A stretch of 64,000 nucleotides of DNA from NCBI RefSeq assembly GCF_024502345.1, contig NZ_JALDNN010000001.1. One strand, 5' to 3'. A model generated the notes under the pieces. That model saw only the letters and a program-made list of their open reading frames with translations, had not been told where the DNA came from and searched no databases. Origin of the DNA: Escherichia coli. GTDB taxonomy: Bacteria; Pseudomonadota; Gammaproteobacteria; Enterobacterales; Enterobacteriaceae. Position numbers and translations under genes: made by a program. Positions 57,593-61,585 of this stretch are shown here, one piece after another (positions within the stretch are counted from its first letter, which is position 1; each line of letters opens with the position of its first letter).

Positions 57593-57805
57593 TCAAAGTG
57601 CCACTACATGAACAGCCGCGGGGCCTTTAGGTCCGTTCTCAATACCAAATTCGACTTGCTGATTCTCAGTTAACGTTTTGAAATCGTTGCTCTGAATAGC
57701 TGAGAAATGGACAAACACATCTTTGCTACCATCTTTCGGCGTGATGAAACCAAAACCTTTTTCAGGGTTAAACCATTTCACTAAACCAGTCATTTTGTTA
57801 GACAT
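57593..57805 (-). CDS. cspI: Cold shock protein, CspI-like
   Basis: 70-aa [70 protein letters not shown]. Confidence 0.92.
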
Positions 57806-58174
57806 CATTATTACCTTTTGAAGAAGTGAGCCCTTGGGCAGAATGGTCCGAAAAAAAATATCAGAGAGAAAAACCAACAAGGAAATCTCAAGAGGTACAA
57901 ATAATAAAATTATAACAATGACTGCTTCAGATAATTTTGTAACAAACCAGAACACCATTAACGCATGATTAACCAACCATAGCAAGGATTACTTTTGTAA
58001 AGAAAAACACACGAATGAAACAATAGCTTTATTTATTAATAAAACGTGTCATTCTGTCTAATGACCTTTTATCTTACCCTTAAGATTTCAAGGATTTTGA
58101 CTCATGGAAGAGTCCTTTTTATTTAAATTTCACATTCAGCGCTAAAAATAATCCGATTTAATGTTAATCTACAT

Positions 58175-58666
58175 CTAATATGTTTTATCTCTTAAAGATT
58201 CATAAATCCGTTGACAAGTCACTCCTGCGATGTAGCGTTTGTCAGCAATTTCAGCATAAAGCTGAGCTTCTGCTGCAATATCTCCGAGCATGTTGGTGAG
58301 CATTCCTTCGGCGGCTTTGGTTGTTTTGCCTCTGACGGCAGCGGCAAGATTTGCGGTATGCTGCGCTGCGTCAAGGCGTATGGCATATTTTGTTGCTTCG
58401 GCACGCAGCTGGTTAACACTATCAGACAGATCAGCAGCCCTGGCAGAAATTTCAGCGGCTTTCTGTTGTGCATCTTTAACAGCCTCATCACGGGATATAG
58501 TTCGCCCCTGTTCAATTATTCGAGCAGCAAATTGGACATTTACCTCTTGAGATAATTCGGCAGCATCACGCTCCGCCCATTTTTTTTGCCATCCTCTGTC
58601 GCTCCAGACATTACCTACGACAAATCCTACCAACACGAGCAAAATCACCGTGAATATCTGATTCAC
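58175..58666 (-). CDS. i-spanin Rz
   Basis: 163-aa, N-terminal TM helix then coiled-coil-rich periplasmic domain; downstream of the endolysin. Confidence 0.8.
58219..58488 (-). CDS. o-spanin Rz1 (lipoprotein embedded in Rz in the +1 frame)
   Basis: Lipobox LTSC and Pro-rich [14 protein letters not shown] inside the Rz gene; start codon uncertain. Confidence 0.6.
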
Positions 58667-59196
58667 TGTTCTATCCCCCAGCAGGTTAATGCACTCTCCT
58701 GGTCACGACGAATAACCTGACCGTAACAGTTATTTGATCGAATGCGGCAATCGCGCCCCCTGTCCTTAATCCACCAGCGAATCGCCTCGCAGGCACCTTT
58801 ACGATCACCTGCATTCAGCCGCTTATAAAACGTCGACGGGAAACACTTACCGGGGCCAATGTTATAGGGACAAAATGACGCCATACCCGCTTTCTGTGGT
58901 TCGGTCAATGGCACTTTAATATTGCGCTCCACCCATGCCAGCGCCTTATCCCGTTCAATGGCATTAACCTGATCGCATTTTTCCTTCGTCAGTTTCATGC
59001 CAGGAATAACAGGTTTACCATCCACCATCGTGGCCCCTCGACAGATGGTCCATATGCCGGAACCATCGCGGTATGCCGTAGTGTGGTTACCCTCTTTTTC
59101 ATCCAGAAACTGGTCAAGTATCTCAGGAGCAGATGCGCCTGCTCCAATCAGCGCCAGAACGGCCGCTGACAGGCCGTATTTGATTTTTGCGTTCAT
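58663..59196 (-). CDS. Phage endolysin (lysozyme with N-terminal signal-anchor)
   Basis: 177-aa [54 protein letters not shown]... Confidence 0.88.
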
Positions 59197-59301
59197 GGAT
59201 ATTTATCAGGATTTATCGGTTTCTGAACCCTGGATATGTTTATCTGTCCCGGCCTGTTGAATCAGGCGGGGAAAAGGTAAAGACAATCAAGAGGATTATT
59301 T

Positions 59302-59574
59302 ATGGACAATAACACCATTTCTCTACAGGAGTTGCTCGACTGCATTTCAAAGCTTCGGGATGATGTAAATGCCCTCACTGTTGCATTTTCATATTTGGCC
59401 TTATCAATTCCCAGAGAACAAATGCAACCAACACTGGCATCGCTCCTGCTTGAATCACGCAACCCCAAATGGTCCCAGGAACAACAAAATTCTTTCAAGT
59501 GGCTGGCGGCATTACTGGAAGAAAAATATGCTGGTAAAATTACCATTTCGGTGGAGTCTTCAGAGAATCAGTAA
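59302..59574 (+). CDS. Hypothetical 90-aa protein on the opposite strand within the lysis cassette
   Basis: AGGA 7 nt upstream of the ATG; MDNNTISLQELLDCISKLRDDVNALTVAFSYLALSIPREQMQPTLASLLLE... Confidence 0.35.
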   Translation: MDNNTISLQELLDCISKLRDDVNALTVAFSYLALSIPREQMQPTLASLLLESRNPKWSQEQQNSFKWLAALLEEKYAGKITISVESSENQ

Positions 59575-59884
59575 TTCTTCCTGGTAGCTTTCCTTTGTAG
59601 GTTATCCACACATTCTGCGCCTCTAAAATTACGGGGCGCTTTTCCGGCGACTGCTCATCCCCTTCACATAACCCGGCTGCAACTTCCAGGAAGACCTGTC
59701 TGATGCTCCTTCTGGCTGCTGCCTCATAAAACTCCAGCGCGGCACCTTCAACACGGTCCAGCGAGATGTCCAGGTCAAAAATTTCACCGTCAAAGCGTTT
59801 TTTGTCCCTTAATGCTACAGTTACCGCAACTTTATTCTCAAAATTGCGGATCCCTTTCACAATCAGTTCATAGTTTTGTGTCAT
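59540..59884 (-). CDS. YdfR-like prophage protein (DUF1327)
   Basis: MTQNYELIVKGIRNFENKVAVTVALRDKKRFDGEIFDLDISLDRVEGAALEFYEAAARRS... Confidence 0.65.
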   Translation of the reverse strand: MTQNYELIVKGIRNFENKVAVTVALRDKKRFDGEIFDLDISLDRVEGAALEFYEAAARRSIRQVFLEVAAGLCEGDEQSPEKRPVILEAQNVWITYKGKLPGRITDSLKTPPKW

Positions 59885-59888
59885 TGAA

Positions 59889-60104
59889 TTACTCTCCCCG
59901 TGCAACCTTACGCTTGTCTTCTTTAATCTTGAAATAAAGGTTTGTCAGGTACGTCAGCAAGCCAAATACCAGACTACCCAGCACACCGATTGCAGCCCAC
60001 TGTGACGGAGTTACTTTATCGAGTAACTGCAATGCCCAGAAACCAGCATTACCAGCCGATGTGCCATAGGCGATACCTGTTGTTAACTTATCCATTGATT
60101 TCAT
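59889..60104 (-). CDS. Phage holin (EssQ/EssD type)
   Basis: 71-aa [71 protein letters not shown]. Confidence 0.88.
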
Positions 60105-60322
60105 ATCCTCACCCCGATGTACACAGATGGTGCAATATGTTTGAAAAGATCGGAGTCTATGGGGTAGTTTTTATAGCAAACGTTGTTCTCAACGGCGCTA
60201 AAAAACAGACACATTAAAAATGTGGGTAATTATTTTAAAAGAAAATCATATATTAAATAATAATACGAGATATGTTTTCATATTTAGTGTACTGTATACG
60301 GCCATTTATACAGGAAAAGCCT

Positions 60323-60493
60323 ATGTCAGAACGTAAAGACTCAAAATCACGCCGTAATTATCTCGTTAAATGTTCCTGCCCAAACTGCACCCAAGAGTCA
60401 GAACACAGTTTTTCAAGAGTACAAAAAGGTGCCCTTTTGATCTGCCCTCATTGCAACAAAGTATTCCAGACAAATCTTAAAGCTGTAGCTTGA
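60323..60493 (+). CDS. Small zinc-ribbon protein (56 aa)
   Basis: MSERKDSKSRRNYLVKCSCPNCTQESEHSFSRVQKGALLICPHCNKVFQTNLKAVA; CxCPNC...CPHC; AGGAAAAG RBS. Confidence 0.55.
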   Translation: MSERKDSKSRRNYLVKCSCPNCTQESEHSFSRVQKGALLICPHCNKVFQTNLKAVA

Positions 60494-60552
60494 TTGATTT
60501 TATTCGTAACAAGTATTTTTTATATTTTAATAACATATTTAAAGCAGATAAT

Positions 60553-60576
60553 AAAAAACCCGCCTGAGCGGGTTTA
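60553..60576. terminator. Bidirectional rho-independent terminator
   Basis: aaaaaacccgcctgagcgggttt. Confidence 0.7.
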
Positions 60577-60856
60577 ATATTGTGGTACTTTTTGTGGGAG
60601 TCATCCACTTACGCACTTTGTTTTGCTATGCCAGCAGTTAGCTTCTGCTGTAAAACTATTCATGCAGCAAACCTGCACTTCACCACAATGGTTAGCATAC
60701 TTTTCCTGATTAAGTTATTGCCAAATATGCTGGCCATTGTTTCATGTATTGGACCTCCTTACTCTTTATTAAAGAGATCCAATATTCACCACTCTGTCTG
60801 TATCTCCACTCAGGCATCAGCCTTCTTCGTTATCGTATACAGACAAACTATGAATT

Positions 60857-61072
60857 TTAATCAGTAATTATGACATTTGCTGCTGCAGGACCTTTAGCAC
60901 CACTCTCTACAGAGAAGGTAACCTTTTGACCTTCAAATAAGATTCGATAATTATCATTCTGAATCGCAGAAAAATGCACAAACACATCTTTACTACCATC
61001 AACAGGAGAAATAAAGCCAAAACCTTTATCAGCGTTAAACCATTTTACTAAACCAGTCATTTTATTTGACAT
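60857..61072 (-). CDS. cspB: Cold shock protein, CspB-like
   Basis: 71-aa [71 protein letters not shown]. Confidence 0.92.
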
Positions 61073-61372
61073 TCTACATTCCTTAACTTGAGCCTTTCGG
61101 CATAAATGGCTTGTATAACAGAAACGACTTCGTACTTAATTGGAGAGACTCAAAGAAGGAATAAGTGAATAACACCTGAAATGAGAACTGCTTTAGTAAA
61201 CTACTTCGTATATCGTCTGTTCTTCAAACCGACGCAATCATTAACGCATAGTTGAACATATGAAGCAATGTTTATTTTAGACATCCAGCCATCTTCAACC
61301 CCATCAAAAAACTATAGCTTTCTTCAGGAACGTGTGTATAGTGCGCCAAGTTATCAGTATTAAGGAATTTTT

Positions 61373-61585
61373 TTGTCCCGTAAAATGACAGGAATTCTCA
61401 AAACCTTTGACGGCAAAAGCGGCAAAGGTCTTATAACCCCATCCGATGGTCGTATCGATGTCCAGCTTCATGTTTCAGCGCTCAATCTCCGCGATGCAGA
61501 AGAAATTACCACCGGATTACGCGTGGAATTTTGCCGGATAAATGGTCTGCGTGGACCATCAGCTGCCAATGTTTACCTTTCATGA
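61373..61585 (+). CDS. cspF: Cold shock-like protein, CspF/CspH type
   Basis: 70-aa [70 protein letters not shown]. Confidence 0.88.

Follow-up and report, generated by a model that had tools for sequence, protein, structure and literature searches.

Cold-shock genes and other accessory cargo in a decayed Qin-type prophage beside prfC in Escherichia coli

What are three cold-shock genes doing among the lysis genes of a defective lambdoid prophage, and do they serve the host in the cold? The question is raised by a stretch of 64,000 nucleotides (nt) of an Escherichia coli genome (assembly GCF_024502345.1, contig NZ_JALDNN010000001.1), called the window here in its full length, in which the genes cspI, cspB and cspF lie close to genes for lysis proteins. 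An initial annotation, made from the sequence alone, had read these genes together with a ydfK-family gene as a cold-responsive RNA-chaperone payload, had called this payload large for a defective prophage, and had proposed selection for host benefit at low temperature. Based on the analyses described here, we concluded that this interpretation was partly right and overstated. We are highly confident that the locus belongs to a Qin-type lambdoid prophage adjoining prfC, of which it forms the late and accessory region, and that it carries cold-related cargo. As such, it is a decayed copy of the Qin-type cold-shock gene cargo that is already known, a feature that is real but ordinary.

Cold-shock-domain proteins

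The genes encoding proteins with a cold-shock domain (CSD) are the following.

cspI, 57593-57805, minus strand: CspA-family gene; CSD (PF00313) at E=1.8e-31 and 108.2 bits; product identical to CspI of K-12 Qin at 69 of 70 residues
cspB, 60857-61072, minus strand: CspA-family gene; CSD at E=1.2e-30 and 105.6 bits; product identical to CspB of K-12 Qin at 69 of 71 residues
cspF, 61373-61585, plus strand: TTG start; CSD at E=8.4e-21 and 74.1 bits; product identical to K-12 CspF at 69 of 70 residues

With a single CSD of about 70 amino acids (aa) as the membership criterion and a Pfam cut-off of 27 bits, CspI, CspB and CspF each passed the CSD model (PF00313) by a wide margin, and these matches, along with the near-identity to the K-12 Qin proteins, bear out the initial placement of three cold-shock paralogues within 57593-61585. 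At the subfamily level, CspB matched the NCBIfam CspA model (141.4 bits; cut-off 130) and CspF the CspF model (158.4 bits; cut-off 111), the latter being a divergent CSD protein of the CspF/CspH type whose gene points away from cspB. CspI passed the CspE equivalog model only (125 bits, above 120) and fell just under the cut-offs of 144 for CspG (138.2 bits) and 130 for CspA (128.2 bits); because it sits near several of these thresholds, naming this paralogue from hidden Markov models is fragile.

CspB and CspI, which are 77% and 70% identical to CspA, respectively, retain all of the surface residues of the RNP1 (KGFGFI) and RNP2 (VFVHF) motifs, namely W11, F18, F20, F31, H33 and F34. In CspF, the RNA-binding aromatics W11, F18, F20, F31 and F34 have been lost and replaced by T11, K18, L20, Q31 and V34, with H33 alone kept, and the chromosomal CspH has a similar pattern of residue loss. 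Since the aromatic RNA-binding surface is gone, CspF probably does not act as an RNA chaperone. A review describes cspF and cspH of K-12 as genes of very low expression, with undetected proteins and without known function (PMC4956666), and deletion of cspF was without phenotype in a study in which deletions of cspB and cspI had one (PMC7406224). In the isolated phage Tritos, a 1-nt deletion shifts the reading frame of cspF (approximately 5690-5895 of its locus, where the gene is unannotated), which indicates that cspF is dispensable for a viable phage. The RNA-chaperone payload proposed initially thus comes down to cspB and cspI, the only credible cold-inducible RNA chaperones here; CspF has lost its aromatics, and for YdfK neither a CSD nor any Pfam or NCBIfam family was found.

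Leaders of the csp transcripts

The Rfam model of the cspA thermoregulator (RF01766; gathering score 78 bits) spans the whole mRNA including its coding part, and we therefore searched the leaders separately as well.

cspB 5' leader, 61073-61233, minus strand: 161 nt, 62.7% AT, with the cold box CGGTTTGAAGAACAGACG and a GCCGAAAGGC hairpin
cspI upstream leader region, 57806-57963, minus strand: 158 nt, 66.5% AT; 57963 is the 5' end of the full RF01766 alignment

For cspB, the mRNA (60794-61233) scored 152.8 bits, above gathering, and the leader by itself scored 26.8 bits (E=2.7e-5, model positions 1-163). Alignment revealed that the cold box and the hairpin are conserved across the cspA, cspG and cspB leaders, and a putative cspB promoter was read from the sequence by eye (-35 TTGCTT at 61268-61263, -10 GTTAAT at 61245-61240). 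Control of K-12 cspB by Rho and through its leader has been described (PMC12360218). For cspI, the mRNA (57566-57963) was also above gathering at 112.5 bits, with most of the score coming from the coding part, and the leader has the GCCCAAGGGC hairpin common to other csp leaders; thermosensing by cspI would rest on published work with K-12 and not on the window sequence. On the strand of cspF, no match to RF01766 at E<=1 was found in 48000-64000 or in 61070-61372, and the cspF start lies at most 139 nt from the predicted transcription start of cspB. Of the long AT-rich leaders initially ascribed to all three genes, that of cspB is therefore well founded and that of cspI plausible, while the one claimed for cspF lacks support. 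Matches to rseX and U6 in the cspI leader were below threshold and were rejected as noise, and an Rfam match to CssrB (24 bits; gathering score 76) was rejected as a chance hit.

The resemblance to the CspA family and its mRNA thermosensor is thus a partial one: CspB and CspI keep the RNP aromatics and the cspB leader, with its cold box, matches the 5' untranslated part of the model, whereas the cspI leader is not cspA-like when taken alone and cspF has neither such a leader nor the RNA-binding aromatics.

By these features, CspB and CspI are standard CspA-family RNA chaperones, and going by the work published on the K-12 orthologues, they would be produced chiefly when the temperature drops. 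In the cold, the long 5' mRNA leader would refold so that the message becomes stable and translatable, and the cspB leader would additionally escape Rho termination under these conditions. In a lysogen, CspB and CspI would add to a redundant chromosomal pool consisting of CspA, CspG and CspE. Cold induction, the leader mechanism and a benefit to the host are accordingly offered here as predictions or as properties carried over from the K-12 literature.

Cargo islands in the late region

As the initial annotation had noted, the csp genes are interleaved with lysis genes: they flank and interrupt the essQ-ydfR-rrrQ-rzpQ region. The order on the minus strand is quuQ, cspB, essQ, ydfR, rrrQ, rzpQ/rzoQ and cspI, with cspF on the plus strand between quuQ and cspB and ynfU on the plus strand between cspB and essQ. 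The late genes and terminator-like elements are listed here.

quuQ/ydfT, 62008-62760, minus strand: late antiterminator Q, identical to the K-12 protein at 232 of 250 residues
likely tR' hairpin and T-tract, 61879-61902, minus strand: some 105 nt downstream of quuQ; the stem is AAAACCCGCTGATGAGCGGGTTTT, with a T-rich tail after it
intrinsic-terminator-like hairpin, 60556-60575, minus strand: between cspB and essQ
essQ, 59889-60104, minus strand: class II holin, identical to the K-12 protein at 68 of 71 residues
ydfR-family gene, 59540-59884, minus strand
rrrQ, 58663-59196, minus strand: lysozyme, identical to the K-12 protein at 166 of 177 residues
rzpQ, 58175-58666, minus strand: i-spanin-like (DUF2514), identical to the K-12 protein at 146 of 165 residues, with rzoQ embedded at approximately 58219-58473

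The AT content is 63% in 60105-62007 and 65.5% in 56600-58174, as against 53% in the lysis cassette and 47% in the adjacent chromosome, and terminator-like hairpins bound the cargo islands. The terminator scan returned the 61879-61902 hairpin on the plus strand only, and its minus-strand reading was made by eye from the sequence, as was that of a candidate pR' promoter (-35 TTGCAT at 61976-61971, a spacing of 17 nt, -10 TAAAAT at 61953-61948). The phages SfV and Ayreon have Q genes that are about 94% identical to quuQ; their homology to the window stops at the 61879-61902 hairpin, where a terminator is annotated, and their slot between Q and the holin has other cargo, including a DNA methylase in Ayreon. 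The island next to quuQ therefore fills a variable slot between Q and the holin.

We interpret the accessory genes as three AT-rich islands, or 'morons', in what appear to be the usual cargo slots of lambdoid phages, with promoters of their own predicted by eye. Island A, between Q/tR' and the holin, comprises cspF (plus strand), cspB (minus) and ynfU (plus). Island B, after the spanin genes, comprises cspI, ynfQ, a ynfR remnant, ynfN and gnsB, all on the minus strand. Island C, which lies past the tail-fibre and pin genes at the far end, comprises ynfT and ydfK on the plus strand. Classic positions of lambdoid morons are that of stx, between Q and S in the Stx phages, and that of bor, downstream of Rz in lambda. 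The islands of the window resemble such morons in their positions after Q/tR' and after the spanins, in their high AT content, in being bounded by terminators and in varying among phages with the same Q, but they carry RNA-chaperone and small-protein genes where the classic examples carry toxins or surface proteins. A literature search turned up no description of phage-borne csp genes as morons.

The members of the islands other than the csp genes are as follows.

ynfU, 60323-60493, plus strand: zinc-ribbon small protein in the AT-rich cspB/cspF island; Pfam YnfU at E=2.5e-31; identical to the K-12 protein at 55 of 56 residues
ynfQ, 57394-57582, minus strand: ATT start; YmcF-like protein with four cysteines; Pfam PF23641 at E=6.3e-33; 10 nt downstream of cspI
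ynfR remnant, 57353-57391, minus strand: premature stop (TAT to TAG) after 12 codons, by comparison with K-12 ynfR
ynfN, 57091-57321, minus strand: 76 aa, matching phrog_3425 over its full length
gnsB, 56745-56918, minus strand: last gene of its cluster; Pfam GnsAB_toxin at E=2.1e-33; identical to K-12 GnsB at 53 of 57 residues and 63% identical to the chromosomal GnsA
ynfT, 51053-51166, plus strand: YnaM/YnfT small membrane protein preceding ydfK; Pfam YnaM (PF23676) at E=5.2e-27; identical to K-12 YnfT at 36 of 37 residues
ydfK, 51235-51468, plus strand: identical to K-12 YdfK at 76 of 77 residues; phrog_2718 matches positions 1-77 of 77

The ydfK gene is present and lies at the prophage end, as had been claimed, about 1.1 kb from prfC and near a dinI-like gene; its coordinates are, however, some 6 kb outside the interval 57593-61585 with which it had been grouped. 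YdfK is a 'cold shock' protein by expression only, and in K-12 the YdfK and YnaE proteins appear after refrigeration (PMC5594050). The four elements ynfQ, the ynfR remnant, ynfN and gnsB follow cspI on the same strand. YnfQ is identical to K-12 YnfQ at 59 of 62 residues and 68% identical to YmcF. The open reading frame (ORF) of the ynfR remnant overlaps a terminator-like hairpin with a run of six Ts after ynfQ; ynfR is also marked as a pseudogene in E. coli O55:H7 strain CB9615, and K-12 YnfR is strongly cold-induced (PMC6001520). The 76-aa form of YnfN is found in CB9615 and in the isolated phage 2H10 as well, whereas the K-12 annotation has 51 aa; a single T in a run of Ts close to the 5' end makes the difference, and K-12 ynfN may be a 5'-truncated form. 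A terminator-like hairpin (56682-56661) follows gnsB. For YdfK, YnfN, YnfQ and GnsB, no NCBIfam models were matched. In K-12, cspI, ynfQ and ynfN are raised about 6-fold by azidothymidine (AZT), an inhibitor of replication, in dependence on LexA and SspA (PMC11228462), and this common response fits one transcription unit, or shared control, of cspI-ynfQ-ynfN. Cold-related accessory cargo is thus a fair description of the locus, but an incomplete one as first given, for it missed ynfQ, the ynfR remnant, ynfN, gnsB and ynfT.

Within the lysis cassette, a 90-aa ORF (59302-59574, plus strand) that matches phrog_2411 and no Pfam family runs antisense to the late operon; it sits in a segment of about 470 bp between rrrQ and ydfR that is without counterpart in K-12 Qin.

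Distribution of the cargo

The order in K-12 Qin is ynfT-ydfK, followed further on by gnsB-ynfN-ynfR-ynfQ-cspI-rzpQ/rzoQ-rrrQ-ydfR-essQ-ynfU-cspB-cspF-ynfS-quuQ. The window has the same genes in the same order and on the same strands, with a DNA identity of 92-95% from ydfK to quuQ, and both prophages are defective. There are also differences. Qin lies between ydfJ and rspB and the window copy next to prfC; the N-terminal terminase fragment of the window is fused near a different tail-fibre end, which includes an ORF with a macro domain; in the window, quuQ has come to adjoin a ymfL fragment through a deletion of 5.3 kb, and the hokD/relBE/dicB side of K-12 is not visible there; and the window has a truncated ynfR, a longer ynfN and the extra ORF at 59302-59574.

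The same cargo is carried by isolated phages. For 2H10 (Glaedevirus), PhiR63_1, HannyBb, PhiR42_1 and Tritos, the module from Q to gnsB was 93-97% identical over 87-95% of 6.1 kb, and these phages also encode YdfK with 99-100% identity (100% in 2H10). Unlike the window prophage, 2H10, Tritos, HannyBb and PhiR63_1 have complete genomes of 45-48 kb with structural genes. The cargo was therefore not created by prophage decay, and it is no peculiarity of a defective prophage. Among 5426 complete E. coli genomes, the 5.5-kb module was found at no less than 80% coverage in 1581 (about 29%), a true cspB-cspF pair at an identity of at least 90% in about 30%, and ynfT-ydfK in 52% (ydfK in 2804). CSD proteins of any kind were encoded in only 87 of 50,697 phage records, among which 2H10 and HannyBb are exceptional with three each.

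An alternative is that the csp genes mainly serve the phage. In such a case, Q-modified polymerase would co-transcribe cspB and cspI with the lysis genes, and the Csp proteins would melt RNA or block termination so as to allow late expression in the cold. The arrangement has something to offer this idea, with cspB and cspI sharing the strand and the order of quuQ, essQ, rrrQ and rzpQ, downstream of Q and with the candidate pR'/tR' just upstream; CspA-family proteins are known as transcription antiterminators (NCBIfam name; PMC11228462), and a module with a triple CSD cargo, unusual as it is, is carried by isolated phages. However, cspB has a leader and a putative cspA-like promoter of its own, terminator-like hairpins part the islands from the lysis genes, and cspF is on the opposite strand. 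The genes are also expressed and matter in K-12 even though Qin cannot excise (PMC3105296, PMC7406224), and purifying selection persists in prophages without heads and tails. Taking these observations together, we consider it unlikely that the csp genes mainly serve the phage.

Decay of the prophage

The initial annotation was correct in calling the prophage defective. By comparison with E. coli O55:H7 CB9615, the part of the window from 20500 to 50158 is ordinary chromosome (98.6% identity), running from arcA to creDCBA, the deo genes and osmY and on to prfC, and the lambdoid prophage adjoins prfC from about 50200 to the end of the window. In CB9615, the same prfC site is occupied by a fuller prophage. 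Relative to that copy, approximately 27 kb of head and tail DNA are absent, from within the large terminase subunit gene to the end of the side tail fibre gene. Early genes amounting to 5.3 kb are absent as well, from the interval that separates ymfL from the gene just upstream of quuQ. Of the packaging genes there remain a small terminase of the Nu1 type and a fragment of GpA_ATPase, its N-terminal part. These losses make the prophage defective. None of the 5426 complete E. coli genomes has this exact decayed configuration: 80% or more of 48500-64000 was covered by a single genome (at 98.6%), and no identical copy was found.

Several further elements were noted in the prophage. The first prophage gene beside prfC is the dinI-like gene (50330-50626, plus strand; Pfam DinI at E=1.2e-19), and a LexA-box-like palindrome, CTGTATACAAACACAG, lies just upstream of it. 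An ORF of 300 aa (53120-54022, minus strand) combines an N-terminal Macro domain (Pfam, E=7.3e-19) with a tail-fibre-like, His-rich C-terminal end and is flanked by the tail-fibre remnant on one side and by tfa, the gene for tail-fibre assembly, on the other; it occurs neither in K-12 Qin nor in the CB9615 prophage, and a 'macro domain-containing protein' is annotated at the same position in 125 complete E. coli genomes. A full-length Rfam match to IS009 (52570-52768, minus strand; 220.9 bits) falls inside tfa, and what this family of supposed small RNAs represents appears to be coding sequence of tfa. Close to the window's start, 2232-2421 matches the hokD region of K-12 Qin at 82%; this is presumably the chromosomal hokC/mokC locus, which would fit the hokC side of the origin region.

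Selection and function

For five copies of each gene (window, CB9615, K-12, Tritos and 2H10, with non-independent pairs), the ratios of nonsynonymous to synonymous differences (pN/pS) were 0.03 for cspI, 0.09 for cspF and 0.06 for ydfK. The Csp and YdfK proteins are 97-99% identical to those of K-12, versus 88-94% for RrrQ, RzpQ and QuuQ. The low pN/pS and the high conservation indicate that the cargo genes are maintained by selection, without thereby telling the purpose of that selection.

The premature stop in ynfR of the window, the frameshift in cspF of Tritos, the large deletions elsewhere in the prophage and a cspF for which protein and phenotype have gone undetected are what might be expected if the genes were neutral passengers of a decaying prophage and had no selective upkeep. 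Yet the pN/pS of cspI, cspF and ydfK is 0.03-0.09, all three csp ORFs and ydfK are intact in a prophage that has lost about 32 kb, the Csp and YdfK proteins are better conserved relative to K-12 than are the lysis proteins, and mutants in cspB and cspI have fitness defects (PMC7406224). We consider neutrality very improbable.

In K-12, cold induces cspB and cspI but not cspF (PMC4956666). Cold sensitivity required the joint deletion of cspA, cspB, cspG and cspE, according to Xia 2001 as cited in PMC4956666. Strains that have lost cspB or cspI survive less well in competition during long-term stationary phase at 37 C, a phase in which cspB, cspI, cspF, ydfK and ynfN are all upregulated (PMC7406224). 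A precise deletion of Qin, which cannot excise in K-12, has also been made, in a paper that did not include a cold assay (PMC3105296).

These data bring up another explanation, namely that the genes form a general stress or stationary-phase module that is not specific to cold, their name reflecting how the family was discovered and their benefit lying, for example, in starvation or DNA damage. The stationary-phase induction at 37 C and the survival cost of losing cspB or cspI (PMC7406224) agree with this, as do the LexA- and SspA-dependent response of cspI, ynfQ and ynfN to AZT (PMC11228462) and the lack of a cold phenotype when one or two csp genes are removed (PMC4956666). On the other hand, cspB has a specific cspA-type cold box and leader, and there are published records of induction by cold for cspB, cspI, YnfR and YdfK (PMC4956666, PMC6001520, PMC5594050). 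A general stress role and a cold role are not mutually exclusive, and we regard the former as a real possibility to which we would give somewhat less than even odds.

Our preferred reading of the locus as a Qin-type prophage with cold-related cargo also has several results against it. By itself, the cspI leader gave no match to RF01766 at E<=1, and hence no cspA-type signal. A consensus promoter scan yielded 10 sites where chance alone would give 15.4, placed no site at any csp gene, and was uninformative; the csp promoters were therefore read by eye and from homology to cspA. The pN/pS of cspB was 0.41, a value based on very few substitutions. Lastly, expression of the cargo genes in K-12 is not cold-specific, with responses to stationary phase and to AZT as well. 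With regard to the proposed selection for host benefit at low temperature, upkeep by selection is thus supported by pN/pS, but cold as its purpose is not, given the four csp deletions reported (Xia 2001, in PMC4956666) to be needed for cold sensitivity and a documented fitness effect in stationary phase at 37 C.

A chromosomal relative of the cargo

The divergent cspB-cspF pair with its intergenic region is 78% identical to the chromosomal cspG-cspH pair, which is present in almost all E. coli. To compare the two loci, we aligned 60857-61585 and 56745-57805 of the window with positions 2464-3741 of the K-12 cspH-cspG-ymcF-ymcE-gnsA locus. The prophage segment that runs from cspF through the intergenic region into the 5' end of cspB aligned with cspH, the intergenic region and the first approximately 115 nt of cspG (76.5%, 635 nt), cspG-ymcF aligned with cspI-ynfQ (74.4%, 360 nt), and gnsA aligned with gnsB (72%). 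By its leader, cspG belongs to the cspB type. In the prophage, the lysis cassette lies between cspB and cspI, which form direct repeats with 82.6% identity over 115 nt. The chromosomal locus is thus a paralogue of the prophage module, but it is without the lysis cassette, it has a single cspG where the prophage has cspB and cspI, and its ymcE is unrelated to the prophage ynfN (17% identity).

Based on these alignments, we tentatively suggest, at somewhat under even confidence, that cspH-cspG-ymcF-ymcE-gnsA is a domesticated remnant of the late region of a Qin-like phage. Recombination between cspB and cspI would remove the genes for holin, lysozyme and spanins. The hybrid csp gene that stays behind, which would be cspG, would have its promoter, leader and 5' end from the cspB type and its 3' end from the cspI type, and genes resembling ynfQ and gnsB would come after it. 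Within cspG, informative sites shift from mostly cspB-like to mostly cspI-like near nt 70; this breakpoint was marginal (maximum chi-square permutation test, p=0.06), and the argument for a chimeric cspG is therefore made from the homology of the flanks instead. The exchange may have gone from phage to chromosome or in the reverse direction. A synthetic cspB/cspI hybrid used as query was matched in one place at 80% coverage or more in none of the 5426 genomes, so that no recent recurrence was seen, and a literature search found nothing relevant on a prophage origin of cspH-cspG-gnsA.

Conclusions

The value of this locus as a discovery is small, since cspB, cspF, cspI and ydfK have been annotated in K-12 Qin for decades, and the experiments that had been proposed for it have largely been done in K-12, where cold induction has been measured and where deletions of Qin and of single csp genes exist. 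The present analysis puts the locus in context: its cargo is that of a phage lineage which is still living, there is more to this cargo than three csp genes, and cspF probably encodes no RNA chaperone. The structure of the cspH-cspG locus, which is the one expected of a copy that has lost the lysis genes, provides a modest, testable idea of how phage cargo may turn into core stress genes. If the idea is true, part of the E. coli cold-shock regulon, namely cspG, cspH, ymcF and gnsA, would have come from a phage.

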